A program made the position numbers and the translations under genes. Under the pieces are notes generated by a model, which had not been told where the DNA came from, made no database searches, and saw only the letters and a program-made list of their open reading frames with translations. Shown piece by piece: positions 8,795-54,699 of a stretch of 64,000 nucleotides of DNA. Position 1 is the first letter of the stretch. Each line of letters opens with the position of its first letter. Origin of the DNA: an uncultured delta proteobacterium (GTDB taxonomy: Bacteria; Myxococcota; Myxococcia; Myxococcales; Myxococcaceae); NCBI GenBank assembly GCA_963771175.1, contig CAVYSY010000023.1:1-64000 (forward strand), written 5' to 3'.

Positions 8795-9319
8795 TCACGG
8801 CGGCGGCTCGGGGCCGAAGCCCGCGTCCGCCGCCATCGCCGAGAAGCGGCCGTTGAGGTTGCGGCCCGCGCCGTAGCCCTCGCCCTTCTGGAAGGACAGC
8901 GAGAAGTCCCCGCGCGTCGGCTCGCCCGGGTTGCCGCCCTCGTCCAGCACCAGGTCGCCCTTCTCCACCGGCGCGAGGACGCGCGCCGGCTCGCCCGCGG
9001 CCAGGTGCACCACCGTCGTCCGCGCGTGCCCACTGGGGGCCTGCCCCGCCAGGTCCACCGTCTTCCCCGGCTTCAGCTCCAGCCCCGCCGTGTCCACGCT
9101 CAGCCGCACCACCAGGTCCACGTCCGTGGCGGTGCTGCGGTAGTAGCTCACCTGCAGCGCCTCGGCGTTGCGCTGCACCTCCACCCGAGACACCTCCAGC
9201 GGGAAGAGCTCGCCCACACTGCCCGACAGCGAGTTGTCCGCCCCACACCCCACCAGCCCCACCCCCACCAGCGCGCCGGCCAGCCCTACCGCCACCAGCA
9301 CCCGCGCCACTCCTCTCAC
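8795..9319 (-). CDS. Uncharacterised lipoprotein (paralog of 51672..52151)
   Basis: GTG start overlapping the upstream stop (GTGA), lipobox GLVGC, beta-rich body ending GRNLNGRFSA. Confidence 0.75.
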   Translation of the reverse strand: MRGVARVLVAVGLAGALVGVGLVGCGADNSLSGSVGELFPLEVSRVEVQRNAEALQVSYYRSTATDVDLVVRLSVDTAGLELKPGKTVDLAGQAPSGHARTTVVHLAAGEPARVLAPVEKGDLVLDEGGNPGEPTRGDFSLSFQKGEGYGAGRNLNGRFSAMAADAGFGPEPPP

Positions 9320-10599
9320 GGCTCCACCGCCAGCTTCACCGCGCCCGTGTCCACGTCCCGGTAGGCCACCACCCGCTTGCCCGTGGACAGGAAGGCCAGC
9401 TTCGGCCCCCAGCCGCCCGCGGCGTCCACCAGCACGTCCTGCCAGTTCTGCTCGACGAACGCGGAGATGCGCAGCTCGTCCACGCGTGGATCGCACCCCT
9501 GCTCGTTGGCGCTCGCGTTGTTGGAGCAGATGTAGAAGACGATGTGCGGCTCGTGGTGCACCGGGTCGAAGGCCAGCGACGGGTACCAGCCGCCCGCGCC
9601 CGACTGGAACACCGGGTTCGCGCTCGACCAGGTGAGGCCGTCCTTCGAGGAGATATAGGTGAGCTCGTTGTCCGTGCGGTCCACCACCGCCACGCCGTAG
9701 CCGACCACGCTGTCCCACGCGAGGCTCCCGCCGAGCTGCGTGTCGTAGACCGTCTGCACCTTCAGCGGCGTCGTCCAGGTGCCGTCCGTCTTGCGCCGCT
9801 GGAAGAGGAGGTCGTGGCCCGTCCCGCTCGCGCTGTCCGGCACCTGGTCGTGGATCAGCGCCGGCTGCCGGTCCGCGCCCAGCACCATGGAGATGTGGCC
9901 GCCATAAGCCGACTTGGTGTCGCCCGACATGGCCAGGACCCGCTTCGCCCAGCTCGTCGGCCCGCCCTCGGCCAGCTCGAGGTCGCTCGACTCGTAGTCC
10001 TGCCTGCCGAACTGCCCGTTATGGCAGTCGCGGTACGCCACGTAGGCCTTCGTCCCGTCGAAGACGATGGCGGGGTTGATGCCCACCAGGAAGCCCGAGT
10101 CCGCCAGGGCGTTGCCGGCGACGGCCTCGTTGCCGCGGCGCACGGGGACCTGCTCCGTCCAGCTCCCGGGCGCGTCGCGGTACGACACGGCCAGGTCGCT
10201 CTGCGCCCAGCCCACGGTGGTGTCATCTCCCCCCCCGAGGTAGCTCACCGCCGCCTTCCCCGCCGAGTCGTACGCCACCGAGACGCCGTACACCTTCTGC
10301 ACCGTGGCCACGCGCTCGGGCTGGGTGGCCTGGCCGCTCTTCCACTCGACGAAGCGGAGCTCGTAGTCCTTCTCCCCCACCCGACTGAAGTAGACCACGC
10401 CCACCTGGTCCTGCGGCCCCACCGCGAGCGCGAGCGCCTGCCGCTCCGTGGCCGTCGCGTCGAGCACACTGCGCGTGAAGGGGGACAGCTCGTTGGGCGA
10501 GTCAGTGCCGCCGGCATCCGTCCCCGCGTCGGGGCGGTGCGTCTCCTCGGTACACGCCAACGCGAGCGCCAGACCCAGCGCCCATCCCTGCCGTCTCAT
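9316..10599 (-). CDS. Lipoprotein, probable beta-propeller
   Basis: MRRQGWALGLALALAC lipobox with a GGAG RBS, and repeated SLA(F/W)D..G..(V/I)(V/A)Y blades. Confidence 0.8.
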   Translation of the reverse strand: MRRQGWALGLALALACTEETHRPDAGTDAGGTDSPNELSPFTRSVLDATATERQALALAVGPQDQVGVVYFSRVGEKDYELRFVEWKSGQATQPERVATVQKVYGVSVAYDSAGKAAVSYLGGGDDTTVGWAQSDLAVSYRDAPGSWTEQVPVRRGNEAVAGNALADSGFLVGINPAIVFDGTKAYVAYRDCHNGQFGRQDYESSDLELAEGGPTSWAKRVLAMSGDTKSAYGGHISMVLGADRQPALIHDQVPDSASGTGHDLLFQRRKTDGTWTTPLKVQTVYDTQLGGSLAWDSVVGYGVAVVDRTDNELTYISSKDGLTWSSANPVFQSGAGGWYPSLAFDPVHHEPHIVFYICSNNASANEQGCDPRVDELRISAFVEQNWQDVLVDAAGGWGPKLAFLSTGKRVVAYRDVDTGAVKLAVEP

Positions 10600-10688: not shown

Positions 10689-11304
10689 ATGGACCGGCGT
10701 TCCTTCCTCCAGCGGCTGACCTTCTTCGGCGGTGGCGTGGTGCTGCTCGGCAGCGGTGGCTGCGCCAAGTGCGGCGCGTCCTCCGCGCCCCCCGAGGCCC
10801 AGGCCCCCACGGCACTCGACTCGCCCCACCTCACCTTCACCGAGGCCGAGTACGCCCTGGTGGCCGCCGCCTGCGAGCGCATCCTCCCGCGAGACGAGGA
10901 TCCCGGCGCCCAGGACGCGAACGTGCCCGTCTACATCGACCGGATGCTCCAGACGTCGGAGCTGAAGCAGATGCGCCACGACTTCGTCTCGGGCATGGCC
11001 GCGCTGGAGCGGCGCTCGCGGAGGATGTTCCAGGTGGGGTTCGCCCAGGCCACGCCCGCCCAGCAGGACGAGCTGCTCGGCATCTTCAAGGACAGCCCGG
11101 CCGGCAGCGGCGAGGCGCACTTCTTCGAGCTGCTGACGGTGCTGACGCTGGAGGGCTTCCTCGGAGACCCCTCCTACGGCGGCAACAAGGAGCAGGTGGG
11201 CTGGAAGCTGGTGGGCTTCGACACGGTGGGCACGGTGGCGTCGTGCCCCGCCCGAGGGCCACGACGGCATGAAGTGCTTGAAGACGTGCGGGAGGCACCC
11301 GTGA
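10689..11304 (+). CDS. Tat-exported gluconate 2-dehydrogenase subunit 3 family protein (frameshift near 11250)
   Basis: MDRRSFLQ twin-arginine signal, ERILP..DPGA.DANVPVYIDR and EGFLGDPSYGGN..GWKLVGF. The alternative frame ends ...KTCGRHP* with TGA at 11302-11304, overlapping the next GTG. Confidence 0.85.
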
Positions 11305-12960
11305 GCAAGGAGCCGGTGGACGTCTGCATCATCGGCAGCGGCGCGGGCGGAGCGCCCATGGCCCTGGAGCTGGGGCGCGCCGGCTTCAAGGTGGTGGTGC
11401 TGGAGAAGGGGGCGCACTACCAGCCCCAGGACTTCATCCACGACGAGATTCTCAACAGCCGCCGCAACTTCTTCATGCCGCTGCCCTGGGAGGAGCCGCA
11501 CCTGCTGCGCCAGGGCGCGGCGGGCCGCTACGAGCGCACCAACTCCGCGTGGACGGCCAACTGCGTGGGCGGCGGCACGGTGCACATGAGCGGCTACTTC
11601 TACCGGCTCAAGCCGGTGGACTTCCGGCTGCGCTCGACGCTCGGGGCGGTGAAGGGCAGCACGCTCGCGGACTGGCCCATCTCCTACGAGGAGCTGGCGC
11701 CCTTCTACGACGTGGCCGAGGCGGAGCTGGGCGTGTCCGGCGAGGCCGTGCCCCACCCCTTCGCCGAGCCGCGCAACGGGCCGTACCCGCTGCCACCTCT
11801 GGACGTACACCCCATCGCCCGGGAGCTGGACCGCGTCTGCGAGGAGATGAGCTGGCACAGCCTTGCCCACGGCACGCGGCATCATCAGCCGGCCGTACCG
11901 GGGCCGCGCGGGGTGCGCCTACTGCGCGCTGTGCGGCAGCTACGGCTGCGAGATGGGCGCCAAGAGCGGCACCAACGCGAGCCTCATCCCCGCGGCGCTG
12001 GCCACGGGGAACGTGGAGCTGCGCCCGCGATGCATGGCGCGCTCGGTGGAGGTGGACAAGGAGGGCCGGGCCCGGAGCGTGGTGTACCTGGACGCGGACG
12101 GGGTGGAGCAGGAGCAGCCGGCCCGCATGGTGGTGGTGTCCTGCACGGCGGTGGAGAGCGCGCGGCTGCTGCTCAACTCGGTGTCCAACCGCTTCCCCCG
12201 GGGACTGGCCAACGGCAGCGGGCTGGTGGGGAGGAATCTCCTCTTCAGCTCGTTCGGCGAGTCGCGCGCCACCTTCCGCGTGTCGAAGCAGCGCGCGGCC
12301 CGGCCATGGCTGACGGACCCGGCGCCCTTCGTGAACCGGAGCGTGCAGGACTTCTACCTCATGCCGGACGAGCGCTTCGGCTTCCGCAAGGGCGGGACGC
12401 TCGGCTTCATGTGGACGCACCCCAACCCCATCTTCGCGGCGGTGGGGCTCGCGGGCAGCGGCAAGGGCGCCGTCTTCGGCAAGGCGCTGAAGGACCGGAT
12501 GCGCGCATACCGGGACTCGCGCATCCTCCAGTTCGAGGTGTATGGCGAGTTCCTCCCCACCCCGGGCACCTACGTGACGGTGGAGCCCTCGGTGAAGGAC
12601 AAGTACGGGCTCCCGGTGGCCGCCATCACGATGGACCGGCACCCCATGGACTTCGCCGCCACGCGCTTCCTCGTGGAGCGGGGCGAGGAAATCCTGATGC
12701 GGCTCGACCCGGACGACGTGCAGCGCGTGGGCGTCGCCGGCGAGACGACCATCCTCCAGCACGGCACCTGCCGCTTCGGGAACGACCCGGCCACCTCGGT
12801 GCTGGACAAGGACTGCCGGGCCCACGAGGTGCCCAACCTCTACGTGGTGGACGGCAGCTTCATGCCCACCGCGGGCAGCGTGCCCTCCACGCTCACCATC
12901 GTCGCCAACAGCTTCCGCGTGGCGCGCGGCCTGGTGGCGAGGATGAAGCGCGAGGGGTGA
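11301..12960 (+). CDS. GMC-family FAD oxidoreductase (frameshift near 11862)
   Basis: DVCIIGSGAGG FAD motif, VGGGTVH, CAYCALCGSYGC cluster, HGTCRFG and NLYVVDGSFMPT. Confidence 0.92.
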
Positions 12961-12975: not shown

Positions 12976-15387
12976 TCACCCCATCCAGATGGCCTCGACC
13001 CGGGCGCGCACCTTGCGTCGCCCCTCCGTGAAGCCCGGCAGCGCCCTCAGCGACTGGAGCGCCGGGCAGCGGTCTATCCACTCCAGGTCGATGAGCGCCG
13101 TGTCCGCGGCCCGCTGGAAGTACTCCAGCGCCTTCTCCGGTTCACCGCAGAGGCACAGAATCTCCGTGGCGATCTGGCACATCATCGAGATGAACCGTGG
13201 GCTCTCCGTCTGGGAGAGCGCCTTGTCGAACATGGGGAACAGCTCGCTCACCGGCACCTCGCCAAGCGCCGCGGCGGCATAGCGACCCACCAGTCGGGAG
13301 ATGAAGTCCGACTCATCGGCCGCCGCGGCCCGACACCGCCGCAGCTCCTCCACATCCCGGTTCCACGCGGCGACACGCCCTCGCAGGGACCGTGCCACGG
13401 CGCTGTGCGTCGGCGACGCGGCCAGCCGCTCAATCGCCCACCGGTAATCATCCATCTGCCCGCGCAGCGCGCTGCAGCGGGCGAGCTCGAACAGCGCCGT
13501 CACCAGGGCGGGCGACAGGTCATAGGCCAGGCGCAGCCGCACAAGCCCCTCGTCCGCGCGTCCCGCCTCGCACTGGATGTTGCCCAGGTACTGCAGCGAC
13601 GGAGCGTGGCTGGGCGCGATGTCCAGGGCCATCCGCAGGGACCTGACCGCCGTGCGCCAGTCATTCTCCTGGGCGGCGAGCATCGCCCGAGCCAGGTGCG
13701 TATCCGCCATATCCGGCGCCAGGCGCAGGGCCCGCTCGACGCTGGCGCGCGCGGCCGCGGCGGGGTCGCGCGCGGGGTTCTTCTCCCACATGAACATCAC
13801 GCGCAGGCTGGCGATGGCATGCAGCGCCAGGGCCGGCAAGAAGTCCGGCGCCTGCTCCAAGCACGAGTCGAGCAGGGCCAGCGGCTCCCCGTCGTGCCCT
13901 CCCCGGAACACCGCATACAACTGGGTGCTCGCCTGGCGGTACTGCTCCAGTGCCTCGGGCGGGGTGTTCGCGCGCCAGGCCGAGAGGATGACCTCTCCGC
14001 GCAGCTCCTCGGCGATGCGCGGCACCAGCCGGTCCTGCAGCTCGAAGGCATCGTTGGAGGCGTACTCGAACCGACCGCTCCAGAGCTGGGTGCCGGACTG
14101 GACCTCGAGCAGCCGCACGGAGACCCGTGTCATCGCGCCCGCGCACTGCACTGTCCCGTCCACCACCGTCCGCGCCCCGAGCTCGCGCCCCACCGTCCGG
14201 GGATCTCTCTCGTCGCGGAAGCGCGCCATGACCCCGCTGCCGGGCACGCGCAGCCCGCGCACGCGGGAGAGCTGGTCGATGAGGGCCTCGGACAGCGTCT
14301 CCCCGAGGTACTCGTGCTCGCGAGGGCCCTGGAAGCGCAGCGGCAGCAGCGCCACGCCCTGCTTCTCCGCCGGAGTGGTGGAGGTGCGCGGCGTGCCGCT
14401 CGTGGTCGACGTGGCGGGCGCGGGGGTATGCGAGTCCGTCATGGGCCCGGGGGTGGCATGCGGGGCCGACAGGGTGGGCTCCCCGACACTGACCAGCCAC
14501 TGCCGCAGCGCCCCGGCCACTTCGAGCGCACTCGTCGGCCGCTCCTCCGGGGAGCGGGCGAGGCAGTGGTGGACCACCTCGGCGAGAGGCACCGGGATGG
14601 AGGCACGCTGGCGCAGGTCCGGCGGGGGCTGACGCAGGCGGGCCATGGCGGCGGCCCACGGGGTGTCCCCGGTGAAGGGGGCCTCGCCGGTGAGCATCTC
14701 GTGCAGCAGCAGCCCCACCGCGTAGAGGTCCGCGCGCGCGTCCACCGGGTCACCCGACACCTGCTCCGGCGCCATGTACATGGGCGTGCCGACGGTGCCC
14801 ATGGTGCGCGAGGCGACCTCCCCCGCCACCGCACGGGCGATGCCGAAGTCGGTGAGCACCACGCGGCCGCCCTTCTCGACGAGGACATTGGCCGGCTTGA
14901 GGTCCCTGTGCACCACGCCAGCGGCATGGGCCGCGGCCAGCCCCTCGCAGACGGCCAGGGCGATGCGCGCGGCCCGAGGCGGCGTCAGCGGGCGCTCGCG
15001 AGCGAGCAGCGTCCGGAGGTCCTCCCCCTCCACGAACTCCATGGTGAGGAAGGACTGGCCCTCGTGGGTGCCCAGGTCATGCATCCGCGCCACGTGGGGG
15101 TGGGTGATGCGACGGGCGAGGCGCACCTCGCGGCTGAAGCGCTCGAGCGCGTCCGGGCTGGCGTCCTTGCCGAGCTCCAGCGTCTTGAGAGCGACCACGT
15201 CGCCCACGAGGCTGTCGCGCGCCTCATACACGGTGCCCATGCCGCCCCGGCCGAGCATGCGTAGCAGGGCGTAGCGCCCGGCGAAGAGGGGCGAGCCCTC
15301 CTGGGTGACGGGGGCACCCGAGGGGCGGATGACGGTTTTGTCGCCCCCATCGAGGGCGGAATCGGGAGATAGGTGGTTCTCAGGCAC
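12976..15387 (-). CDS. Ser/Thr protein kinase with TolB-like and TPR C-terminal regions
   Basis: LGRGGMGTVY, VALK, HRDLKPANV, DFG, GTPMYMAPEQ, followed by VALLPL...TVVDGTVQ and helical repeats. Confidence 0.95.
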   Translation of the reverse strand: MPENHLSPDSALDGGDKTVIRPSGAPVTQEGSPLFAGRYALLRMLGRGGMGTVYEARDSLVGDVVALKTLELGKDASPDALERFSREVRLARRITHPHVARMHDLGTHEGQSFLTMEFVEGEDLRTLLARERPLTPPRAARIALAVCEGLAAAHAAGVVHRDLKPANVLVEKGGRVVLTDFGIARAVAGEVASRTMGTVGTPMYMAPEQVSGDPVDARADLYAVGLLLHEMLTGEAPFTGDTPWAAAMARLRQPPPDLRQRASIPVPLAEVVHHCLARSPEERPTSALEVAGALRQWLVSVGEPTLSAPHATPGPMTDSHTPAPATSTTSGTPRTSTTPAEKQGVALLPLRFQGPREHEYLGETLSEALIDQLSRVRGLRVPGSGVMARFRDERDPRTVGRELGARTVVDGTVQCAGAMTRVSVRLLEVQSGTQLWSGRFEYASNDAFELQDRLVPRIAEELRGEVILSAWRANTPPEALEQYRQASTQLYAVFRGGHDGEPLALLDSCLEQAPDFLPALALHAIASLRVMFMWEKNPARDPAAAARASVERALRLAPDMADTHLARAMLAAQENDWRTAVRSLRMALDIAPSHAPSLQYLGNIQCEAGRADEGLVRLRLAYDLSPALVTALFELARCSALRGQMDDYRWAIERLAASPTHSAVARSLRGRVAAWNRDVEELRRCRAAAADESDFISRLVGRYAAAALGEVPVSELFPMFDKALSQTESPRFISMMCQIATEILCLCGEPEKALEYFQRAADTALIDLEWIDRCPALQSLRALPGFTEGRRKVRARVEAIWMG

Positions 15388-15568
15388 GGCGCCTGCAATC
15401 TAACCTGGGCCCCCCTGCCCTGCCATTCACTCTGGGCACAAAAGCCCGACGGGTGGAGAGCAGCCAGGCATGAGGGGCAGCCCCTCGCGAGCGGACGTGC
15501 CTACACTCGGCGCGCGAAGACCCACCACCCGCTCGGCGTTCACGGGCCGAGATACGAGAGGCCCCCCG

Positions 15569-16904
15569 ATGACGGATACCTGCATCCGCGATTGTCACGC
15601 GCTCGTCCCCGACGCGAGCGGAGCGCTCACCCTCGCTCGCCACCAGGACATCCTCGTCCGCGGCAACCGGATCGCCGAAATCCGCCCCACCGGGCGCCCG
15701 CCCGAACCTGGCACCACGGTGCTCGAGGGGAAACGGATGCTCGCCATGCCCGGGCTCATCAACACCCACGCCCACGTGCCCATGGTGCTCTTCCGGGGGC
15801 TGGCCGAGGACGTGCCCATCGAGCGCTGGTTCAACGAGTTCATCTGGCCGCTGGAGAGCAACCTCACCGAGACGGACGTCTACTGGGGCGCGCTCCTGGG
15901 CCTCATCGGAGATGATTGAAGGTGGCGTCACCACGGTGGCCGACCACTACTTCTTCATGGACCAGGTGGCGCGAGCCGTCGAGGAGGCCGGCACCCGGGC
16001 CCACCTGGGACAGGCCGTGTTCTCCAGCCGCGGCTACCCCGCGCTCGCCGAGACGGCCGCCTTCGCCGAGCGCTGGAAGGGCGGTGCGAGTGGCCGCATC
16101 ACCACCTGCATGGCCCCGCACGCGCCCTACACCTGCGATGACGGGTTCCTGCGCGCCGCGGTCGGGCACGCCAACCGGCTCGGCATCGGCATCCACATCC
16201 ACGCCGCCGAGGAGATGAACCAGACGAACGCCAGCATGGCGAAGCGGGGACTGACGCCCATCCAGGTGCTCAGGGACACCGGCGTCCTCAGCGTGCCCGC
16301 CCTGATTGCCCATGGCTGCGGCCTGCTGCCCCAGGATATCGAACTGCTCGCCCGCCACCGGGCGACCGTGGGCATCGCCCACGCGCCGAAGACGTACCTC
16401 AAGCTGGGCATGGGCATCACCCCCATCCGAGCCTTGCGCAAGGCGGGAGTCGCGGTGGGCCTGGCCACCGACGGCGCGGTCAGCAACAACACCTTGGACA
16501 TTTTCGAGAGCCTGCGCCTCATGACGCTGATGCAGAAGCACGAGGCGATGGACCCCGAGGTGATGCCGATTCCCGAGGCGCTCGACATCGCCACGCGAGG
16601 CAGCGCGACGGCGCTGGGCCTGGGAGAGCGCATCGGCACGCTCGCGCCCGGCTACCAGGCGGACCTCATCCTCGTGGACACCCGAGGCGCCCACTGGCAG
16701 CCGCCCCACAACCTCACCGCCGGGCTGGTGTACAGCGCTCGCGCCAGCGACGTGGATACCGTCATGGTGGACGGCCGCGTCATCCTGCGCGAGCGCCGAC
16801 TGCTCACCCTCGACAAGGAGCGCGTCCTCACCGAGGTGGCGAGCACCATGGAGCGCCTGGCCCAGCGCGTGCCCGAGGCCCGCATCCAACGCTACCAGCC
16901 GTGA
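15569..16904 (+). CDS. Metal-dependent amidohydrolase, MtaD/TRZ-ATZ deaminase family (frameshift near 15908)
   Basis: MPGLINTHAH, MAPHAPYTC, IHIHAAE, AHGC, VGLATDGAVSNN and GTLAPGYQADLI. Confidence 0.9.
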
Positions 16905-16955
16905 AACTCGCGGTGGACGAGGGGGAATAGCGAGTCAGGCTCACGAGCGACGCTC

Positions 16956-17630
16956 TCACCCCGCCGAGCGCACGAGCTGGGGCTGGAAGCCATCCATGAG
17001 CGCCTCCATGAGCCGCTCCATCTCCTCCAGCGGCACGCCCTGGATGGTGAGGAGCGTCTTGCCGCGCAGGACGCTCGTCTTGAGCTCCACGCGAGCGCCC
17101 TTGGCGAAGTGCCGCGAGAAGCTGTCGCGCATGAACTGGATGCGGGCGGCATCCGTGGCGGGCATGGTCACCCGGGACGGCTTCCGCTTGTGCTTCACGG
17201 CCTGCCGCAGCTCCTCCAGGCTGCACTCGGCGAAGGGCTTCTGCGCCACGGCCCCGCTCTCCTGGGGGACGTCGATGAGCATCGAGTCCGGCCCGCCAGC
17301 CGAAAGCGGGAGGTCGGCCTCCTTCGCGTAGGCACGCAGCGTGAGCAGCTTCATCACCCCATGCGCCCGGCACGCCTCCTCGGTGAACTCCCGAGCCACG
17401 GCGCCGTACCGGCTCAAGGTGGACTGCGAGAGTTCCTGGATGTGCTGGCTGAAGTACGCCTGGGCGTTCTCGTATTTCTTCTCTTCCGCCAGCTTGTGGT
17501 CCACGACGTAGTTGTAGAGGCAACCGATGTTGTAGTGCCCGGCGTTCCCCTCCTTCAGGTGCGCGCGGATGGAGTCCCGCGCCTGCTCGATGGTCCAACC
17601 GGAAAACCTGCTGCTTGCGTTCGTTTCCAT
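16956..17630 (-). CDS. Hypothetical protein, possibly HTH DNA-binding
   Basis: Intact 224-aa ORF with GGGGGGA RBS-like purine run. The segment YENAQAYFSQHIQELSQSTLSRYGAVAREF looks HTH-like (inference). Confidence 0.7.
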   Translation of the reverse strand: METNASSRFSGWTIEQARDSIRAHLKEGNAGHYNIGCLYNYVVDHKLAEEKKYENAQAYFSQHIQELSQSTLSRYGAVAREFTEEACRAHGVMKLLTLRAYAKEADLPLSAGGPDSMLIDVPQESGAVAQKPFAECSLEELRQAVKHKRKPSRVTMPATDAARIQFMRDSFSRHFAKGARVELKTSVLRGKTLLTIQGVPLEEMERLMEALMDGFQPQLVRSAG

Positions 17631-17802
17631 GATTCCCCCCAGTGAGGATGGAGAAGCCGCGACGGAGCGCCGCGGCTGCTCGAACGCATGGCACATACCG
17701 GGCCAGGGAATTCACCACGTGGATTCGCTCACTTACGAGCGGGGTGCCCGCAGAAGCGTCCCATCCCCCAGAGACACCGTCCGAGAAACGAGACAGTCCA
17801 CG

Positions 17803-17961: not shown

Positions 17962-18010
17962 GCAACCTCCACTCCAAGCATGGAGAAGTGGTTGCTGATA
18001 GGTGTGGTGT

Positions 18011-18580: not shown

Positions 18581-18610
18581 GGAAGCCCACCCGCGGACGA
18601 TTCCTCGGCG

Positions 18611-43373: not shown

Positions 43374-43478
43374 GAAGAAGTCACCCCCTGTGAACGGTCC
43401 CCCACCTTTTACAGCCTAACCGCAAGTTAGGGGCATGCGTTGACAGGTTGGTGCGCCCATCGCTTAACTGGCGGCCTG

Positions 43479-46238: not shown

Positions 46239-46877
46239 GTGCGATACGCCCTGCTCCTCCTCTTGAGCCTCCTGCTCCCCGGCCTGGCCCGGGCCCAGGC
46301 CGAGGCGCTCGAGAACCCCGGCACCGTCTCCGCCGTCCAGGAGCGGCTGTACCGGATGAACCACGAACTGACGCTCGGCGTGGGCGTGCTGCCCGCGGAT
46401 GCCTTCTACAAGGGAGTGCTCGGCAGCGTCGGCTACACCTACCACTTCAGCGACAGCTTCGCCTGGCAGGTGGGCCGCGGCAGCTACAGCTACAACCTGA
46501 AGACGAGCCTGCGCGAGCAACTCGAGCGCGACTTCGAGGTGTCCCCCACCAACACCGCCTTCGAGGAGCAGGTGCAGTGGATGGTGGGCTCGGACCTGGT
46601 GTGGAGCCCCATCTACGGGAAGATGGCGATCAACAACCGCTCGGTGGTGCACTTCGCCGGCTTCCTGCTGGGCGGCGCGACGGTGATGAAGCTCGAGCGC
46701 GCCGACGGCTTCCGCCCCGCCGTCAACCTGGGCCTGGGCGTGCGCGTCTTCACCGGCCGCAACGTCTCCTTCCGGTTCGACGTGACGAACAACGTCGTCT
46801 TCGTGGGCGCCACCCGCATCATCCAAGTGCCCACGCTGCAGCTCTCAACCGCGCTCAACTTCGGCGCCACGGAATGA
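46239..46877 (+). CDS. Outer-membrane beta-barrel protein, GltA/B/H-like
   Basis: Signal peptide, AVQERLY..HEL, DAFYK, YHFSD, WSPIYGK and NLGLGVRVF. Confidence 0.82.
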   Translation: MRYALLLLLSLLLPGLARAQAEALENPGTVSAVQERLYRMNHELTLGVGVLPADAFYKGVLGSVGYTYHFSDSFAWQVGRGSYSYNLKTSLREQLERDFEVSPTNTAFEEQVQWMVGSDLVWSPIYGKMAINNRSVVHFAGFLLGGATVMKLERADGFRPAVNLGLGVRVFTGRNVSFRFDVTNNVVFVGATRIIQVPTLQLSTALNFGATE

Positions 46878-48430
46878 CTCCCCGCTCACTGCTCGCCGCG
46901 CTCGTCTCCGCCGCGCTGCTCGCCGCGCCCGCTCGGGCCCAGGCGGGGGAGGCGCCAGCGGACTCCCCTGCCCCCGCTCCCGCCAACGGCGCCCCGGCTC
47001 CGAAGCCGGCCGCGCCCGCCGAGGCCGCACCCGCGGAGGAAGCCCCTCCGCCCCCGGCCGAGAAGGTGCCGGACGAGGTGTTCGACAAGGCGCTGGCGGA
47101 CTACTTCGCCGGCAACCCGCGCGCCGCCGCCGGGCCGCTCTACGCGTGGCTCTCCGCGGCGCCCCGGACGCACGAGAACTACGCCTGGGCGCAGTACTTC
47201 CTGGCGCGCAGCCTCATCGACCTGGGCTTCACCCACGCGGGCGGCGTGTACCTGGCCCGCATCGCCCGGGAGCGCTCCAACCCCAACGTGCTGCCCCGCG
47301 CACTGGAGACGCTGCGCGAGCTGACGGACCGGCCGCACGACGAGGTGATGATCGACGAGCAGGTGTTCGGGGCGCTCGACCTGGGCTTCCTGCCGGAGGA
47401 GACGGGGGCCTACGCGCACTACCAGCAGGGACTGGTGGACCTGCGCGTGGGCAACGAGCGCTGGGCCAGCACGCACTTCTCCAAGCTGCCCGAGGGCAGC
47501 GCCGAGGCCAGTCGCGCCCGCTACGCGCTGCTCGTCACCCGGCTGCGCGAGGTGAAGGAGCCCAACGACGAGCTCATCGAGGATTTCCTCGCGCTGTCCA
47601 AGGACGAGAAGCTCACCCGCGAGTCGCGCAACGAGGCGGCTCTGGCGGTGGCTCGCCTGCGCTACGAGCGCAATGACTACAAGCGAGCGCTGGAGGCCTA
47701 CGAACTGGTGAAGCTGCCGGAGCTCGACCCGGGCCGGGCCACGCTGTACCTGGAGGAGGCGTGGACGCGCTACAAGCTGGGCGAGCCGCGCGCCTCGATG
47801 GGCATCCTCACCACGCTGGACGCGCCCGCCTTCCGGGACGAGTTCCTCCCGGACAAGTACCTGCTGCGCGCCCTCATCTACCGGGATTTGTGCCACTACC
47901 TGCCGGCCAAGCGCGCGGCGAAGGAACTGACGCGGCGCTTCGCGGACTCGCTGGAGGCCGTCCACAGCCGCGAGGACCTGACGCAGGACGCGCGCCTGCG
48001 CCGGGCGGCGAGCGCCCATGGCACCACGAGGCGGGCCGCGAAGTTCCTGGAGGTGCTGGAGCTGGAGGGTGAGCGCCTGGGCCGCTACGCCGGCAGCTTC
48101 GGCGAGCGCCTCTACAAGCACCTGACCAAGACGTATGACCTGTCGCACGCCGAGGCCCGGCGCGTGTACCAGACGCGACTGGAGGAGGCGGTGCGCCAGG
48201 AGGCGGACACGCTGCTGCGCGCGGCCGAGCAGGTTCGACTGATGGAGTACGAAGTGGGCCTGAAGCTGTACGAGCGCGTGAAGAAGGGCGCGAAGGTGGT
48301 GGCACCGCCCGAGGAGGAGCTGCTGTCGCCCTCGCAGGTGGGCTTCCGTTTCGATGGCGAGTACTGGAACGACGAGCTGCGCTCGTACCGCGTCCGCCTC
48401 GAGAGCCGCTGCATCGAGGAGAACCCATGA
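46874..48430 (+). CDS. GltC-like exported TPR protein
   Basis: ATGA coupling, signal peptide, LEEAWTRYK, ALIYRDLCHY and C-terminal FDGEYWNDELRSYRV.LESRC. Confidence 0.8.
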   Translation: MTPRSLLAALVSAALLAAPARAQAGEAPADSPAPAPANGAPAPKPAAPAEAAPAEEAPPPPAEKVPDEVFDKALADYFAGNPRAAAGPLYAWLSAAPRTHENYAWAQYFLARSLIDLGFTHAGGVYLARIARERSNPNVLPRALETLRELTDRPHDEVMIDEQVFGALDLGFLPEETGAYAHYQQGLVDLRVGNERWASTHFSKLPEGSAEASRARYALLVTRLREVKEPNDELIEDFLALSKDEKLTRESRNEAALAVARLRYERNDYKRALEAYELVKLPELDPGRATLYLEEAWTRYKLGEPRASMGILTTLDAPAFRDEFLPDKYLLRALIYRDLCHYLPAKRAAKELTRRFADSLEAVHSREDLTQDARLRRAASAHGTTRRAAKFLEVLELEGERLGRYAGSFGERLYKHLTKTYDLSHAEARRVYQTRLEEAVRQEADTLLRAAEQVRLMEYEVGLKLYERVKKGAKVVAPPEEELLSPSQVGFRFDGEYWNDELRSYRVRLESRCIEENP

Positions 48431-51400
48431 CCGGCCCCCTGACCGGCCTGCTCATCGCGGCGATGCTCGCCGCCGGCCCCGTCAACCCCATCGCGTCCAA
48501 GGCGAAGGAGCGCGAGGAGCTCATCGAGAAGCTCAAGCGCGACATCTTCAAGGTGGACCGCGCCCTTGGCGAGACGGAGCGGCTCATCACGAAGAGCCGC
48601 AACGCGCCCTACCTGCCGGACCTGCAGTTCCGGCTGGCCGAGCTGTACGTGGAGAAGAGCCGCTACGTGTACTACCTCCAGGCGGAGCAGCGTCCGCCCG
48701 GGGCGAGCGGTGCCCTGGTCTCGCCCGAGACGCGCCTGCTGAAGCAGAAGGCCGTGCAGATGTACTACCGGCTGCAGCGCGAGTGGCCGGACTTCCACGA
48801 CGGCGACAAGGTGCACTTCTACCTCGCGCACGAGCAGCGCGAGCTGGGCTCCTTCGACGAGATGCTCAAGACGCTGGACGACCTGGTGCGCAAGTACCCG
48901 ACCAGCCCGCTGCGACTGGAGGCGCTGCAGATTCTCGGCGACCACCACTTCGACAAGGCGGACCTGGCCACCGCGGAGAAGCACTACGCGATGATTCTGG
49001 AGGCCCCGCCCTCGCCGGTGCACGACCTGGCCCGCTACAAGATGGGGTGGATTCGCGTGAACCAGAGCAAGCACGCGGAGGCGGTGCCCTTCTTCGAGGC
49101 CGCCGCGGCGAGCGCTCCGCTGCCCGGGGTGGACGTGCAGAAGTCGCTCAACGTGAAGCGCGAGGCGCTGTTGGATCTCGTCTACAGCTACACGGAGGCG
49201 AGGCCGGCACGCGGCGCGCTCAACTACTTCGAGAAGCTCAGCGACAGCCGGGCCACCTACGCGCTCGCGCTGGACAAGCTGGGCAACCGCTACTTCATCA
49301 AGGCGCAGTACGAGTACGCCATCCCCGCGCTGCGCAAGCTGATGGAGCTGCAGCACGACCCGGAGCTGGACCTGGAGCGCGGGCAGCGGCTGTACGACGC
49401 GCTCAAGGCGGCCAAGGGCAAGGTGCTGCCGGAGCCGGAGGACCTCCGCTTCCTGGTGCGCGCGGCGGTGACGAGCAAGACGGACCCGGAGCTGGACGAG
49501 GCCGAGCGCAAGAAGCACCTGGCGGAGATGGAGGAGATGGCGCGAGACCTGGCCACACAGCTCCACGTGGCGGCACAAGCGCAGAAGAAGGAGGACAAGG
49601 CGCTGTACGTGAAGGCGGCGGCGGCCTACCAGGAGTACCTCGGGCTCTTCCGGCCGGAGCAGTACGTGCGGACGATGATGAAGAACCGCGCGGAGGCACT
49701 CTTCGCCGCCAGGGAGTTCCCCGAGGCGGCGCGCCAGTTCGAGGAGCTGGCCCGCTACGAGGAGAAGGCGAAGGACGACAAGGGCGTGGAAGCGGCGATG
49801 TACGGCGCGCTGCTGGCGCACTTCTCCACGGTGAAGCCGGACGAGGCGCAGCGCCGCAATGCCTTCGAGGTGGCGGACGCACGGCAGGCGCTCAAGCTGC
49901 TGGGGGCGGACTACGTGTCGCGCTACCCGCAGAGTCCCAACGTGCTGGAGGTGAAGTTCAACATCGCCCGCGCCTGGTACGAGGACGGCGAGTTCCCCAA
50001 GGCGGCCGAGCTCTTCACCGCCTTCGCGCTGACGCACCCCACGCACAAGGACGCCGCGGCGGCGGGCAACCTCGCGCTCGACAGCCTGCGGCAGGTGAGC
50101 GACTTCAAGGGGATGGAGGAGACGGGCCAGAAGTTCATCGGCTCGCCGCTGCCGGTGGCCTTCCAGAACGACGTGAAGCGCATCCTCGCCCAGACGAAGG
50201 CCGAGGCCCTGGACGAGCTGGCGCTGAAGAGCTCGCAGGAGACGGGCGACGTCATCGAGGGCCTGATGAAGGTGGCCAACGAGAACAAGGGCGCGGAGCT
50301 GGGCGAGAAGGCCCTCTACGGCGCCTTCACGGCGGCGCGTGACAAGCGGGACTTGGGGCGCGAGCGGGAGATTGGCAAGCGACTCACGGACGAGTACCCG
50401 AAGAGCCAGTACGTGCCGGACGTGCTGCTGACGCTGGGCCGGCACGCGGCGGAGGCCGCGGCCTTCAACGAGGCGGCGAGCGCGTTCGAGACGGTGGGAG
50501 TGAAGCTGGGCTCGGACGTGGCGGCGGTGGACGGCTGGCTGACGGGCGCGCGGCTGCGGCAGGCCATGGGCCAGTTCCGCGAGGCGGCGCGTGACTTGGA
50601 GGCGGCGGCGGAGGTGGCGGGGGCGCGCAAGGCGGAGGTGATGGTGCTGCTGGCGGAGGCGCACCTGAAGAGCCGGGACTACGTGAAGGCGAAGACGGCG
50701 GCGGACCTGGCGCTGAAGCTGGACAGGACGAGCGCGGCGGCGGTGGCGGTGCTGGCGGAGGTGCAGGCCACCACGGCGGTGAAGGACGCGCCGGACGGCC
50801 TCATCAAGACGCTGACGGCGGCGGTGCAGGGCCCCAACGGGCAGACGGAGGAGGCGGCCAGGGGACTCTGGTACCTGGGTGAAATCCTCTATCGCTCCTA
50901 CAAGGACCTGCCGGCGGACAAGGTGGAGGAGAAGGTGTCGGCTCTGCAGGGGCTGGAGGGCGTGTACACGCAGGCCGCGTCGCTGGGCTATCCCGAGTGG
51001 GCGGTGGCCTCGCTGTGGAAGGTGGGCCTCTCGTACGCGCACCTGGCGGACGTGGTGGAGGCGACGCCGACTCCGGCGGGGGCATCCGCGGCGGACGCAC
51101 AGGCGTTCCGCAAGGCGGTGGCCGAGCAGGTGGGGTCGCTGCGGGAGCGGGCACAGAGTGCCTTCGAGGCGTGCGTGTCGCGCGCGGAGTCGCTGGAGGT
51201 GTTCAACGCGGCGGTGGTGGGTTGCCGCTCGAAGAACGAGGCGGTGGCGCTGCCGGTACCGGTGCCGGGAACGTCCACCCAGCCCGCCTCTCTGGAAGAG
51301 CTGCGCAAGAAGGCGGAGGCCACGCTGACGGCCGAGGCGCTGGAGTCGCTGGGCCTGGGCTACCTGGGCGCGAACCAGTTCGGCCTGGCGCAGCTCACGC

Positions 51401-51675
51401 TGGGGCGGGTGACGGAGCTGCAGGACACGCGGGCCTCGGCTCACAGCGCGCTGGGCTGGGCGCTGCTGAACCAGGGGGACGCGATGGGGGCGCGCGAGGC
51501 GTACGCGAAGGCGCTGGAGGCGGACCCCACGTATGACAAGGCGCGGCTGAACCTGGCGTCGCTGCGCTGCCGCTTCGGGGACACCGAGGGGGCGCGGCGC
51601 GAGCTGTCGGTGCTCAAGGACGTGGGCGGCCTGTCGGGCCCCGACGTGGACACCGGGTGGAAGGCCTGCAAATGA
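48427..51675 (+). CDS. GltD-like large TPR protein
   Basis: 1082-aa helical repeat protein with DLQFRLAELYVEKSRY, LVRKYPTS, LARYKMGW and EWAVASLWKVG. Confidence 0.8.
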   Translation: MTGPLTGLLIAAMLAAGPVNPIASKAKEREELIEKLKRDIFKVDRALGETERLITKSRNAPYLPDLQFRLAELYVEKSRYVYYLQAEQRPPGASGALVSPETRLLKQKAVQMYYRLQREWPDFHDGDKVHFYLAHEQRELGSFDEMLKTLDDLVRKYPTSPLRLEALQILGDHHFDKADLATAEKHYAMILEAPPSPVHDLARYKMGWIRVNQSKHAEAVPFFEAAAASAPLPGVDVQKSLNVKREALLDLVYSYTEARPARGALNYFEKLSDSRATYALALDKLGNRYFIKAQYEYAIPALRKLMELQHDPELDLERGQRLYDALKAAKGKVLPEPEDLRFLVRAAVTSKTDPELDEAERKKHLAEMEEMARDLATQLHVAAQAQKKEDKALYVKAAAAYQEYLGLFRPEQYVRTMMKNRAEALFAAREFPEAARQFEELARYEEKAKDDKGVEAAMYGALLAHFSTVKPDEAQRRNAFEVADARQALKLLGADYVSRYPQSPNVLEVKFNIARAWYEDGEFPKAAELFTAFALTHPTHKDAAAAGNLALDSLRQVSDFKGMEETGQKFIGSPLPVAFQNDVKRILAQTKAEALDELALKSSQETGDVIEGLMKVANENKGAELGEKALYGAFTAARDKRDLGREREIGKRLTDEYPKSQYVPDVLLTLGRHAAEAAAFNEAASAFETVGVKLGSDVAAVDGWLTGARLRQAMGQFREAARDLEAAAEVAGARKAEVMVLLAEAHLKSRDYVKAKTAADLALKLDRTSAAAVAVLAEVQATTAVKDAPDGLIKTLTAAVQGPNGQTEEAARGLWYLGEILYRSYKDLPADKVEEKVSALQGLEGVYTQAASLGYPEWAVASLWKVGLSYAHLADVVEATPTPAGASAADAQAFRKAVAEQVGSLRERAQSAFEACVSRAESLEVFNAAVVGCRSKNEAVALPVPVPGTSTQPASLEELRKKAEATLTAEALESLGLGYLGANQFGLAQLTLGRVTELQDTRASAHSALGWALLNQGDAMGAREAYAKALEADPTYDKARLNLASLRCRFGDTEGARRELSVLKDVGGLSGPDVDTGWKACK

Positions 51676-52151
51676 GCGCTCGCGCGTTGCTGGGGCTGCT
51701 CCTCGCGGCCCCCCTCACCTCTTGTGCCCCTCCCAAGGCCCTCGAGGGCAGTGTCACCCCGCTGCTGGACCTCAGCTACGAGCGGGTGGAGGCCCAGGCC
51801 ACGAAGTCCGAGGTCTCGGTGCGCTTCCTGCGTCCCCAGGGCGCGGGCGAGGACACCCTCCTCAAGGTGGCGGCGAAGCTGGAGGGCGTGGCCCTGGAGC
51901 CCCGCGCCGCCATCCCCCTGGGGCAGCGGGTCGGCGGCCCCGAGGGCCCGCTGCGAGGAATCGTGAGCCGAAGCGTGCTGGACGAGCCGGTCCGCGCGTT
52001 CCCGGACATCGCCCGGGGGGAGCTCGTGTTCGACGGATACCTGGACTCGGGGAAGACCGTGACGGGCGAGCTCCGCGTCACCTTCGCCAACGGCACCGAC
52101 GTCTACTCTGGCCGTACCATCTTTGGCCGCTTCGAGGCGACCGTTCCATGA
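51672..52151 (+). CDS. Uncharacterised lipoprotein (paralog of 8795..9319)
   Basis: ATGA coupling, LTSC lipobox and C-terminal GRTIFGRFEA. Confidence 0.8.
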   Translation: MSARALLGLLLAAPLTSCAPPKALEGSVTPLLDLSYERVEAQATKSEVSVRFLRPQGAGEDTLLKVAAKLEGVALEPRAAIPLGQRVGGPEGPLRGIVSRSVLDEPVRAFPDIARGELVFDGYLDSGKTVTGELRVTFANGTDVYSGRTIFGRFEATVP

Positions 52152-52786
52152 AGCGCACTGTCCTGCCCCTGCTGCTGCTGCTCGCCGCCGCGTGCGGTCC
52201 CCGCTACGGGATGCGCGTCCCGGACGCGATGGTGACGAAGCTCCCCTACGAGACGCGCATCGAGTTGCTGGAGTCGGAGAACGACCTGGCGCTCGCCATC
52301 GACCGGATGGACGAGGCCAGCAACGAAATCCTCCGCACGCGAGATGCCCTGCGCCGGGCCAAGGGCCGCGAGTCGGCGGCCGAGAACGAGGAGGACCGGG
52401 CGCCGGACGAGGCCTCGCGCGAGGTGGCGAAGCTGGCCATCGAGGAGGCACGGTCGCGGGTGGAGTACCTGCGGGCGAAGCAGCGTCTCAACGTGGGGCT
52501 GCGGGAGGTGGAGGAGCTGGCGCTGCGCTGTGCCTTCGCGCGCTTCGAGCTGGCGCGGCTGCAGGCGGCGCGCAAGGCGAAGGTGGAGGGCAGCGAGGAG
52601 CTGGACCCGAAGGAGTACGAGGCGCAGGTGTCCGAGTGTGAGACAGAGGTCAAAGAGGAGCGGACGACATTGGCGGCGGACACTGCCCAGGAGAAGACAG
52701 CGCGAGAGGCCTGGGAGGTGAAGAAGGCGACCCTGGCGAAGAAGACTTTCGACGCACGCGCGAGTCCCTACGTGGAGAACCTGTGA
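52148..52786 (+). CDS. Coiled-coil lipoprotein
   Basis: ATGA coupling, LAAAC lipobox and an Ala/Glu/Arg-rich helical body. Confidence 0.8.
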   Translation: MKRTVLPLLLLLAAACGPRYGMRVPDAMVTKLPYETRIELLESENDLALAIDRMDEASNEILRTRDALRRAKGRESAAENEEDRAPDEASREVAKLAIEEARSRVEYLRAKQRLNVGLREVEELALRCAFARFELARLQAARKAKVEGSEELDPKEYEAQVSECETEVKEERTTLAADTAQEKTAREAWEVKKATLAKKTFDARASPYVENL

Positions 52787-54699
52787 TGACGCGAGCCGGC
52801 CTCCTGGTCTTCCAGCTCCTGACAGCCCAGACACCCGTCCCGGATGCAACGCCTCCGGAGGACGCCGCCGTGGAGGCCGCGTCGAGAGCCCAGGCGCCAG
52901 CCGACGCGGAGCGGCTGTACCGGCTGGGGACGGCCTTCCTGAAGCGGGGCCAGCCCCAGAAGGCGGTGGAGCCCCTGACGAAGCTGGTGGAGCGGGCGCC
53001 GGACCTCCTGGCACCGCAGGTGGCGTTGGCGCGGGCGCTACGGCTGACGGGGGACACGGACAAGGCGAGGGCCCTGCTGGACACGGCCATCGAGACCTGG
53101 CCCAAGGAAGAAGGGCTGCGGGCGGAGCGAGGGCTGCTGGCGCGGATGCTGGACGAGCGGGACACGGCCATCGCCCAGTTCTCCCTGGCGGCGGAGCTGT
53201 CGCCGAAGGACGCGGAGCTGCGCTTCAACCTGGGCGAGGCGCTGCAGCACGCGGGGAAGACGGACGAGGCCATCGCCGCCTACCGCGCGGCGTTGAAGCT
53301 GGACGAGACGCTGACGGCGGCGCGGGTGAACCTGGGCAAGGCGCTGGCGGACAAGGGGCGGAGCGGCGAGGCCAAGGAGGTGCTGCAGGAGGCCACGCGC
53401 GTGGCGCCGAAGGACGCGGAGGCGCACTACAACCTGGGCGTGCTGCTGATGCGCGAGGGCCTGCTGGACGGGGCCGTCTCCGAGTACGAGAAGGCCCTGG
53501 CGGCGGTGCCGAGGCACGCCCTGGCGCTCAACAACCTGGGCGTGGCACTGGACGCGCAAGAGAAGCACGCGAAGGCGCTGGAGTGCTTCCGCAAGGCGGT
53601 GGCGGCGGACCCGAAGTACGCGGAGGCGCACTTCAATCTGGGGATGGCGTACTTCCGGAAGGACGACACCATCCGGGCAACGCGGCACTTCGAGAAGGCG
53701 CTGGCGCTGGAGCCGCGAAGGGCGAGCGGCCCGTACACGCAGCTCGGGGCGAGCTACCTGGCGCAGGGCAAGCGGGACCGGGCGGTGGAGGCCTTCAAGA
53801 AGGCGCTGGCGGCGAGCGCGGAGGACGGCAAGCCGAATACCGAGGCCTACCAGGGGCTGGCGCGGGCCTACCTGGGGCTGGGCCAGGTGGACGAGGCGTT
53901 GGCCACGCTGAAGACGGCGGTGGAAGCTTTCCCCAGGGATGCGAGCGCGAAGGCGGCCTACGGAGACGCGCTGCTGGCGAAGGGGGACCTGGACGGAGCC
54001 CTCGCGCAGTACGAGGAGCGGCTGGAGCTGGAGCCGACGACGGACGCGCGGCTGGCGCTGGCGAAGGCGTACGCGCGCAAGCGGGTGAGCGAGAAGGCCG
54101 TGCCCCTGTACGAGGCGGTGCTGGCGGAGGAGCCGGAGCACTCGGCGGCGAGGCTGGCGCTGGCGGACCTGTACCTGGCGATGGGAAACCACGACGGGGC
54201 GGAGAAGCTGCTGAAGCCGAAGGAGGGCGAGGAGGCGGACACGGCGGCGCTGGCGCGGCTGGGCATCCTGCACTCGCGGCGGGGGCGGCCGGACCTGGCG
54301 GTGCCGGAACTGGAGGAAGTGACGAAGAGGGACCCCTCACAACTGGAGGCGCGGGCGGAGCTGGGCTTCCTGTACCTGCGAGGCGGGGACAAGGAAAAGG
54401 CGGTGAAGGTGCTGAGGGAGGTGGTGGCGGTGGAGCCGAGGCACGCGCTCGGGCTGCTGTACCTCGGACACGCGCTGTTCCAGGCCGGGAAGGCGAAGGA
54501 AGCGGAACAGTCCTTCCGGGGCGCGTCTCAGGTGGACCCGTCCTTCGGAGAGCCGCACTACGCGCTGGGCCAGCTCCTGGAAGCGGCGGGCAAGCTGCCG
54601 GAGGCGAAAGCGGAGTATGAGAAGGCGGCGGAGCTACAGAAGAACCACCCGGAGGCGGCGGCGGCGGCGAAGCGCCTGAGCAGCGCGGGTATGCAGTAG
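52783..54699 (+). CDS. Multi-TPR protein
   Basis: Numerous canonical TPRs (AEAHYNLGV, ALNNLGV, AEAHFNLG). Overlaps the upstream stop. Confidence 0.9.
   Translation: MMTRAGLLVFQLLTAQTPVPDATPPEDAAVEAASRAQAPADAERLYRLGTAFLKRGQPQKAVEPLTKLVERAPDLLAPQVALARALRLTGDTDKARALLDTAIETWPKEEGLRAERGLLARMLDERDTAIAQFSLAAELSPKDAELRFNLGEALQHAGKTDEAIAAYRAALKLDETLTAARVNLGKALADKGRSGEAKEVLQEATRVAPKDAEAHYNLGVLLMREGLLDGAVSEYEKALAAVPRHALALNNLGVALDAQEKHAKALECFRKAVAADPKYAEAHFNLGMAYFRKDDTIRATRHFEKALALEPRRASGPYTQLGASYLAQGKRDRAVEAFKKALAASAEDGKPNTEAYQGLARAYLGLGQVDEALATLKTAVEAFPRDASAKAAYGDALLAKGDLDGALAQYEERLELEPTTDARLALAKAYARKRVSEKAVPLYEAVLAEEPEHSAARLALADLYLAMGNHDGAEKLLKPKEGEEADTAALARLGILHSRRGRPDLAVPELEEVTKRDPSQLEARAELGFLYLRGGDKEKAVKVLREVVAVEPRHALGLLYLGHALFQAGKAKEAEQSFRGASQVDPSFGEPHYALGQLLEAAGKLPEAKAEYEKAAELQKNHPEAAAAAKRLSSAGMQ

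Follow-up and report, generated by a model that had tools for sequence, protein, structure and literature searches.

The systems closest to the locus described here are those of Myxococcus xanthus. The mts locus (MtsA-F) was reportedly described by Zhang et al. in 2007. The Agl-Glt machine drives gliding using the VWA lipoprotein adhesin CglB and the AglRQS motor, and the paralogous Nfs machine deposits the spore coat with the same motor; an earlier note on this DNA had set out these points in agreement with published accounts. A further glt-like cluster, G5, was listed by Luciano et al. (PMC3169522) as five genes, MXAN_1327-1331 (of which MXAN_1327, 1328 and 1330 encode 1089, 538 and 749 amino acids), with its function stated as unknown. 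According to Wartel et al. (PMC3858216) the motor M2 is dispensable for motility and sporulation, binds neither GltG nor NfsG, and has no known partner. The window analysed here (G000:C23:1-64000) is the whole stretch of 64,000 nucleotides, taken from a genome of 9.8 Mb with 70% GC that is 82% complete; it carries on its plus strand an operon corresponding to G5 (43479-54699) and, facing away from it, the mts genes. We are highly confident that the G5 and mts genes make up one system of about 20 genes. On balance we lean towards reading it as a third motor-driven machine of the Agl-Glt type, which would display Mts lipoproteins with VWA and TSP3 domains for cell cohesion. Our literature search, from which subscription journals were mostly absent, found no paper linking G5 and mts, or mts to a Glt-type machine or motor, and neither "mts" nor MXAN_1332 occurs in the supplement files of PMC3169522 that were searched. 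For the union of G5 and mts, the boundary at about 20 genes, the motors within the locus and the link to M2 we found no earlier account; the pieces are known separately.

The evidence for a single system comes from co-inheritance and linkage in two overlapping genome samples, 61 relatives and 251 genomes of the phylum (the latter taking in the unpublished genome G221, one of those with both halves). Among the relatives, MtsD and the G5 GltC occur in the identical 32 genomes and neither is found in the other 29. Across the phylum, 148 genomes have both the G5 GltC and an MtsD-type protein, none has G5 only, 98 have neither, and five have Mts only, all of these being drafts of 210-1270 contigs. 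These counts omit 11 weak GltC matches in the phylum (E >1e-50, taken as canonical paralogues) and, in the relatives, G054 (2e-21) from G5 GltC, a partial match in G024 (1e-27) and weaker ones from Mts, G044 (8e-77) from the GMC dehydrogenase and G038 (8e-16) from the haem lipoprotein discussed below. The gene caller based on a codon model missed four genomes; G072, G095 and G107 were searched again in six frames and G039 by tblastn. Since 50 of the 61 relatives have canonical GltC above its cut-off, the profile shared by G5 and Mts does not reflect general gene loss.

Linkage was surveyed in 79 loci, representing the best 80 of 319 and all from close relatives. An mts gene is held by 42 of the 44 that have at least 8.5 kb upstream of GltC; of the remaining two, one has the GMC, propeller and lipoprotein genes and one has none. 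In a second survey of 20 loci from distant families, picked for long contigs, 14 have Mts genes no more than 20 kb away, their order shuffled and interleaved. The locus occurs with few or no insertions in G022, G026, G029, G023 and G031. In four near-complete genomes of the source genus three separate blocks of the system are gone while the passengers between them are retained, and an mtsF copy or remnant persists in three of the four; these co-losses may stem from few events. It could be argued that G5 and mts have separate functions and merely travel as one island, given that no defect in motility was seen in the published mutant of G5 (PMC3169522) and that two promoters face apart. We consider this very improbable, as distant families show genes of the two halves mixed in several different orders, and the profiles agree even in genomes where G5 and mts are not linked. 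The proposal of the earlier note that the glt-like operon, mts and a lipoprotein pair form one unit is therefore borne out by co-inheritance and linkage. Its suggested comparison of synteny and profiles held for these three; a DUF1501 operon proved independent, and a sigma-54 activator is a frequent neighbour that is not lost with the system. Two further lipoprotein families recur near distant loci (L160-L199, L017, L033), one of about 330-420 amino acids in 12 genomes and one of about 300 amino acids in six, and are candidate lineage-specific members.

Judged by its gene content, the plus-strand operon is the G5 cluster, a Glt/Nfs paralogue of M. xanthus. Gene order, strand and sizes match MXAN_1327-1331 beside MXAN_1332, where 100 bp separate MXAN_1331 and MXAN_1332, and every gene listed in the earlier note is present. 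The operon begins with a small secreted GltF-like protein (MXAN_1331; 43479..43912), with one frameshift near the 5' end of its gene and a match to NCBIfam CglF (E 7e-9) under the cut-off; this gene lies 5' of the GltG-like gene in 44/44 close-relative loci with enough flank. The GltG-like transducer (MXAN_1330; 43950..46196) combines an FHA domain, one membrane helix, a Pro-rich linker and a TonB-like (AgmX/PglI) C-terminal domain; it scores 226 bits against the GltG model (cut-off 650) and has 748 amino acids against 749 in MXAN_1330. The outer-membrane barrel of the GltA/B family (MXAN_1329; 46239..46877) matches TIGR04565 at 111 bits, over the cut-off, its profile matches canonical GltA/B and NfsA/B, and many relatives have two tandem copies. 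It is followed by a GltC-like periplasmic TPR protein (MXAN_1328; 46874..48430; 74 bits, cut-off 450) and a GltD-like TPR scaffold (MXAN_1327; 48427..51675) of 1082 amino acids against 1089, which matches the other three GltD paralogues in this genome at 24-28%. The last three genes code for the lipoprotein lipA1 (51672..52151), a helical lipoprotein of no known family that adjoins the GltD or TPR gene in nearly all loci (52148..52786), and a long TPR protein possibly in the role of GltE (52786..54699), which scores 98 bits against the GltE model (cut-off 225) amid many generic TPR matches. Overlaps of 1-4 bases connect the last six genes, and the first three are set apart by gaps of 37 and 42 bp.

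Homologues of GltC, GltD and GltG are thus clustered, none of them reaching the cut-off of its canonical model, as a paralogue would be expected to behave, and a GltA/B barrel and GltF belong to the same cluster. The operon is not the canonical gliding machine: counterparts of GltK, H, I and J were not found, the canonical G1, G2, Nfs and G4 clusters of G000 lie on other contigs, and the window GltC groups with mts-linked GltCs in a clade separate from those of G2, Nfs and G4 (Shimodaira-Hasegawa-like approximate likelihood ratio 100, in a quick tree with long branches). By the same tree, and with the nfs cluster on C39, orthology to nfsA-H was rejected. The small lipoproteins, lipA1 included, were tried as GltK and rejected, as hhalign pairs only the signal peptides, and a PopA-type identity for the barrel was set aside since its source paper names neither Glt nor Myxococcus. 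PMC10196010 places MXAN_1327 among Tad genes, for which the gene content here gives no support.

The identity extends well beyond the published five genes. In the strain DK1622 table of PMC6791715, the strands and sizes of MXAN_1331-1345 match the conserved gene order one by one: GltF, MtsA-F, an Ig-fold lipoprotein, a small lipoprotein, the large and small GMC subunits, a propeller, lipA2, one other gene and an activator. The gene order in M. xanthus AM003 is the same. Our unit extends as far as MXAN_1343 at one end and, at the other, takes in three genes past gltD. Transcripts of the locus in the available DK1622 data (PMC6791715) run at about 25-110 reads per kilobase per million (RPKM), low and flat in development; these levels resemble those of unrelated neighbours, and no support for co-regulation is claimed from them.

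The mts half begins across a gap of 105 bp (43374-43478), as the earlier note had observed when it placed the glt-like operon head-to-head with an mts cluster; the divergent gene is mtsA. MtsA (MXAN_1332; 41112..43373, minus strand) takes its name from public records. MtsB (MXAN_1333; 36459..38056), MtsC (MXAN_1334; 34979..36293), MtsD (MXAN_1335; 32987..34948), MtsE (MXAN_1336; 31241..32990) and MtsF (MXAN_1337 by position and size; 28893..31184) follow on the same strand, all five frameshifted. MtsA, C and D were identified by names and models and lie in order with B, E and F, which were identified by position and size; the names MtsB, MtsE and MtsF are ones we assume for the window genes by position. 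MtsB, MtsD and MtsE are lipoproteins with VWA and TSP3 domains, paralogous over their whole length and sharing a C-terminal domain. MtsC has TSP3 repeats and a MYXO-CTERM segment and matches NF047638 as two separate pieces of 254 and 326 bits; MtsD matches NF047639 in pieces, and the NCBIfam names of both are cell-cell cohesion proteins. According to PMC12475490, MtsC (MXAN_1334) is a MYXO-CTERM protein with a role in motility other than A-motility. MtsF is a large lipoprotein with predicted PPC-like domains; its look-alikes in the Atlas (score 0.94, with PF04151 in 30-52% of members) are a lead only. Beside mtsF is kept an Ig-fold lipoprotein (MXAN_1338; 28415..28846, plus strand; Pfam Cep192_D4/VesB-like); next comes a small Cys-containing lipoprotein (MXAN_1339; 27874..28308, minus strand), the true start of which may be further upstream.

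Single-base frameshifts, seen with a genome-trained codon model, affect many window genes, those of the system and unrelated ones alike. In the close-relative sequencing run X1, one contig covering 28.8-44 kb lacks the base at 9 of the 12 indels listed; these losses mostly coincide with inferred breaks, and six of the nine are common to a second run, while three breaks in mtsF are seen in X1 only. Because the close-relative contigs lack the extra base at most of the breaks listed, the frameshifts are likely assembly errors, and intact orthologues were therefore used for models.

The DxSxS motif of MIDAS, an adhesion site that depends on a metal ion, is present in 17/17 MtsD and 17/18 MtsE sequences and in 1/17 of MtsB. 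Since the site is lost in MtsB and intact in the other two, MtsB may be structural; mtsB is the VWA gene most often retained beside the G5 operon in distant loci. In MtsD the MIDAS residues D64, S66, S68, T165 and D205 are invariant. A model of an intact MtsD orthologue (predicted local distance difference test, pLDDT, 92) has the VWA domain inserted in a beta-sandwich built from N- and C-terminal strands, plus TSP3 loops, and its nearest folds are VWA domains (Z up to 19). An integrin-like pairing of propeller and VWA was considered; integrin beta-3 ranks 49th in this fold search. Stand-alone extra mtsD-like genes lie away from the locus in G030, G026 and G022 (L078, L079 and L080, respectively), and a partial second copy (L020, G030:C60:85-93 kb) has a VWA gene, barrel, GltC, GltD and two lipoproteins, with no F or G.

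The MtsD model also bears on a different reading of G5, as an energised export or assembly machine which would take the Mts lipoproteins over the outer membrane or build them into a VWA-tipped fibril, in the manner of type IX secretion or type V pili. The modelled insertion of the VWA domain, with matches spanning both parts to the pilus tip adhesins SpaC, Mfa5 and PitA (Z 14.9-16.1, root-mean-square deviation 8-11 A), would fit this idea, as would the C-terminal domain common to MtsB, D and E. We nevertheless regard export as unlikely. The pilus-adhesin matches stem from the VWA fold that these proteins share, a barrel of about 190 residues would be small for protein export, CglB is described as surface-exposed without GltABH (PMC9946355), and MYXO-CTERM proteins such as MtsC are described as exiting via type II secretion (PMC12475490).

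If the Mts proteins are instead the cargo of a motor-driven machine, a motor is needed, and the earlier note had called the operon motorless. This is correct for the window and its family; elsewhere, eight loci encode an AglRQS-like triad. In G045, G050 and G055, all of one genus, a TolQ/ExbB gene and two TolR/ExbD genes lie one gene from mtsB, while in G065, G088, G095, G101 and G166 the triad is inside the G5 run, and in G065 the motor, adhesin and redox genes follow in that order in one run of the same orientation. The Myxococcales have two motor triads, one matching the AglR/Q/S lengths (245/162/194) and one linked to topA, which has a TsaP-sized gene on one flank and on the other a gene that bears the name "gliding motility protein". 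These flanks fit tsaP (MXAN_3001) and aglU (MXAN_3008) as given in bioRxiv 10.64898/2026.08.28.747804, and the topA-linked triad is thus taken to be M2 (MXAN_3003-3005). Seven locus-linked AglR homologues group with it, with support of 96/94 in an 18-row tree and 92/92 in an earlier 17-row tree; grouping with AglR was weakly rejected (approximately unbiased test, p-AU 0.042). M2 and the locus triads are therefore of the same clade, with M2 unlinked to G5 in the window's family; in G000 it lies at C24:57.6-59.4 kb. This M2-type triad was the only motor triad found in G000; an AglR-type gene was not found with the query used, probably because the assembly is 82% complete. No motor class was found to track G5 genome-wide among the relatives compared.

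In the cohesion machine that we favour, the GltG-like protein would be gripped by a proton motor of the MotA/TolQ type. Some lineages encode such a motor in the locus; in the window's family it is predicted from the tree to be M2. By analogy with Glt and Nfs, force would travel through the GltG, GltD, GltC and TPR proteins across the periplasm and reach the GltA/B-like barrel. The VWA lipoprotein CglB is bound and exposed by GltABCHK (PMC9946355), and in like manner the barrel platform may hold and expose MtsB, D, E and F, the propeller and the small lipoproteins, together with MYXO-CTERM-anchored MtsC. MtsD and MtsE, the adhesion sites of which are intact in sequence and model, would bind neighbouring cells or matrix, and the outcome would be cohesion, not gliding or spore coat. 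Speculatively, an optional redox arm could be added, in which a Tat-exported FAD/Fe-S dehydrogenase oxidises a sugar and the dihaem propeller protein MtsA accepts the electrons. In a broader form, to which we attach only tentative belief, G5, Mts and the M2-type motor would be one ancient phylum-wide machine moving or tensioning VWA adhesins at contacts, with MtsA and the dehydrogenase modifying adhesins or matrix.

Several observations weigh against this proposal. M2-type motors are present without G5 (e.g. in G001, G004, G008 and G015), so that M2 is not exclusive to G5, and none was found in G049, which has G5. An insertion in MXAN_1327 left motility not appreciably changed (PMC3169522, where soft-agar motility appears in insets), deletion of MXAN_3004 likewise produced no appreciable change in the reported motility assays, and the absence of a motility defect in G5 and M2 mutants does not obviously match the role of MtsC outside A-motility. 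Six of the 20 distant loci are without an Mts gene within 20 kb (two with the GMC pair only and four with neither; two are at a contig edge). MtsA is absent from 53 of the 153 Mts genomes, and model and profile searches of the locus found no counterpart of GltK, GltH, GltI or GltJ. Finally, the genomes are kin, so that the counts overstate independence.

Set beside the described systems, the G5 locus shares with the Agl-Glt gliding machine and its adhesins CglB and CglD counterparts of GltA/B, C, D, F and G as well as VWA lipoproteins. CglD, like the Mts proteins, combines a VWA domain and DxDxDG repeats in a different domain order, and cglD is described as never clustered with glt genes (bioRxiv 10.1101/2023.10.19.562135), whereas the G5 locus encodes three VWA paralogues. 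Agl-Nfs (PMC3858216) is likewise a single-cluster Glt paralogue without I, J and K; in the window's family G5 must similarly borrow its motor. The two differ in that their GltC clades are deeply separate and in that the predicted cargo of G5 is protein, that of Nfs being polysaccharide. For the mts locus itself, the dihaem and propeller build of MtsA and the division of MIDAS among B, D and E are described here.

Several haem proteins had been assigned to the system by the earlier note. MtsA, with a propeller and two haems, is a member and the DUF1501/haem operon is not; a GMC dehydrogenase pair is a further redox partner. MtsA consists of a membrane helix, an Ig-like domain, a seven-bladed propeller and a dihaem c domain with two invariant CXXCH motifs and an invariant distal His (model pLDDT 85.6). 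It occurs in 27/32 system genomes against 0/29 of the other relatives, and in the phylum in 100/153 Mts genomes against 0/98; it depends on the system yet is optional. In its propeller plus dihaem layout it resembles hydrazine synthase beta/gamma and the bacterial dihaem peroxidases, with matches that are weak or generic: the propeller scores Z 34.1 with hydrazine synthase, level with a surface-layer protein (33.5), and the haem domain matches bCcP, MauG and hydrazine synthase gamma profiles weakly (E 3e-6 to 1e-5).

The dehydrogenase pair comprises a twin-arginine (Tat) signal small subunit (MXAN_1341; PF13618; 10689..11304, plus strand) and a GMC FAD/Fe-S large subunit (MXAN_1340; 11301..12960, plus strand), both frameshifted. 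They are two genes, separate in relatives, and the appearance of one fused protein here is due to a frameshift. The large subunit has CxxCxxCxxxxC in 10/10 sequences, and its nearest solved relatives are glucose and fructose dehydrogenases. Far from being a later insertion, as the earlier note had supposed, the pair is a conserved accessory member: the large subunit is found in 30/32 system genomes and in 3/29 others, and all 27 MtsA genomes among the relatives have it. Where the locus is split, MtsA and GMC remain together. MtsA and the pair are thus redox partners of the system, both optional; electron transfer between them, and any role in cross-linking, is speculative. The three-subunit FAD glucose and fructose dehydrogenases likewise have an FAD subunit with a Cys cluster and a Tat small subunit, but the loci contain no gene for their trihaem or multihaem cytochrome c subunit, for which MtsA, adjacent to GMC in some loci, could be a stand-in.

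These genes lend themselves to a reading as energised TonB-type capture or sensing, whereby the Mts proteins would bind a polymer or surface ligand, the dehydrogenase oxidise a sugar, MtsA read the redox state and the activator relay it. The resemblance of the pair to periplasmic sugar dehydrogenases and the presence of the GMC in every MtsA genome among the relatives are in keeping with this, and FHA domains occur in both the GltG-like protein and the activator (MXAN_1345 by size and place; 944..2308, plus strand), which is often adjacent. Yet both MtsA and GMC can be absent, the loci show no recurring TonB-dependent transporter or hydrolase, and there is no conserved sigma-54 site: a strict pattern was found upstream of G5 in 6/52 loci, of mtsA in 0/11, of mtsB in 0/17 and of the GMC pair in 0/9. 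We judge sensing to be quite improbable. The G5 operon instead has a sigma-70-like promoter (43440..43469, plus strand), with a TTGAC -35 and a T-rich -10 about 10 bp 5' of the start codon. TTGAC was found in 52/52 loci with at least 400 bases upstream of the operon, in most cases at a single spacing and against a background of 0.16 per 520 bases, and sigma-54 control through GG-N10-GC at 43449 (loose pattern 31/52) was rejected in its favour. A palindrome at 43417 was present in 1/52 loci and dropped as a conserved element. The activator stays with the unit only in part: it is near the locus in 9/18 close and 3/20 distant system genomes and is also kept in G008 and G015, which are without the system.

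The lipoprotein pair, also a member of the system, consists of a predicted beta-propeller lipoprotein (MXAN_1342; 9316..10599, minus strand), with an Atlas lead to BNR-type propellers, and lipA2 (MXAN_1343; 8795..9319, minus strand), which is coupled to the propeller gene and aligns as a paralogue of lipA1. The propeller is found in 28/32 system genomes against 2/29 others, with weak homologues in the locus in the four misses, and MXAN1342 appears in the outer-membrane protein table of PMC3222651.

Between this end of the locus and the small lipoprotein gene lies an inserted block outside the system (12976..27864), containing a kinase, an amidohydrolase, the DUF1501/haem operon, an MXAN_6652-family gene and a carboxypeptidase-repeat gene. 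It is at the locus only in the source genus and is mostly kept in genomes without the system, so that the idea of intervening genes as later insertions holds for this block, as opposed to the GMC pair. The earlier note, in its full version, made the DUF1501 operon part of the machine. This operon (18611-23862, minus strand) encodes a barrel, a DUF1549-like protein, a Tat-signal DUF1501 protein and a haem lipoprotein with one CXXCH and one atypical CX6CH. It does lie inside the locus in system-bearing genomes of the source genus. Tracked by the haem lipoprotein, which the other three genes adjoined in 8/8 relatives' regions examined, it is present in all 18 genomes of that genus, 10 of them without the system, in 9/32 system genomes against 14/29 other relatives, and in 12/148 G5 genomes of the phylum (absent from 136) against 8/103 others; in the complete genomes G204 and G211 it is about 700 kb from G5. 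The DUF1501/haem operon is an independent passenger, and its inclusion in the machine, already contradicted by these counts, is scarcely credible. The four-gene unit occurs in 20/251 genomes, all of one family.

Upstream of it, and travelling with it in the source genus, is an MXAN_6652-family MYXO-CTERM protein with a CXXCH motif (24318-24947, minus strand). Also in the source genus, the activator is parted from the lipoprotein pair by an insertion encoding an ELWxxDGT-repeat MYXO-CTERM protein and a kelch-repeat protein (3448-8413, minus strand), and a long membrane protein (56176-58476, plus strand), which by its motifs we take to resemble quinol-dependent nitric oxide reductase, is kept near the locus. 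Within the mts genes, 3055 bp separate mtsA and mtsB and hold two unrelated plus-strand genes of lower GC (38262-41108), for a lipoprotein and an AAA_21 ATPase; the latter has similarity under the cut-off to anti-phage ATPases such as PtuA and is kept in genomes that lost the system.

The analysis ties together three orphans of the model species, G5, mts and M2, and gives names to about 20 genes. Published accounts have called the roles of G5 and of the M2 motor unknown since 2011-2013. If the reading as a cohesion machine is true, the Agl-Glt design would have a third use, cohesion via a protein cargo, in about 60% of the sampled phylum, the cargo and sometimes the motor would be encoded beside the transducer, and the orphan M2 motor would gain a job.

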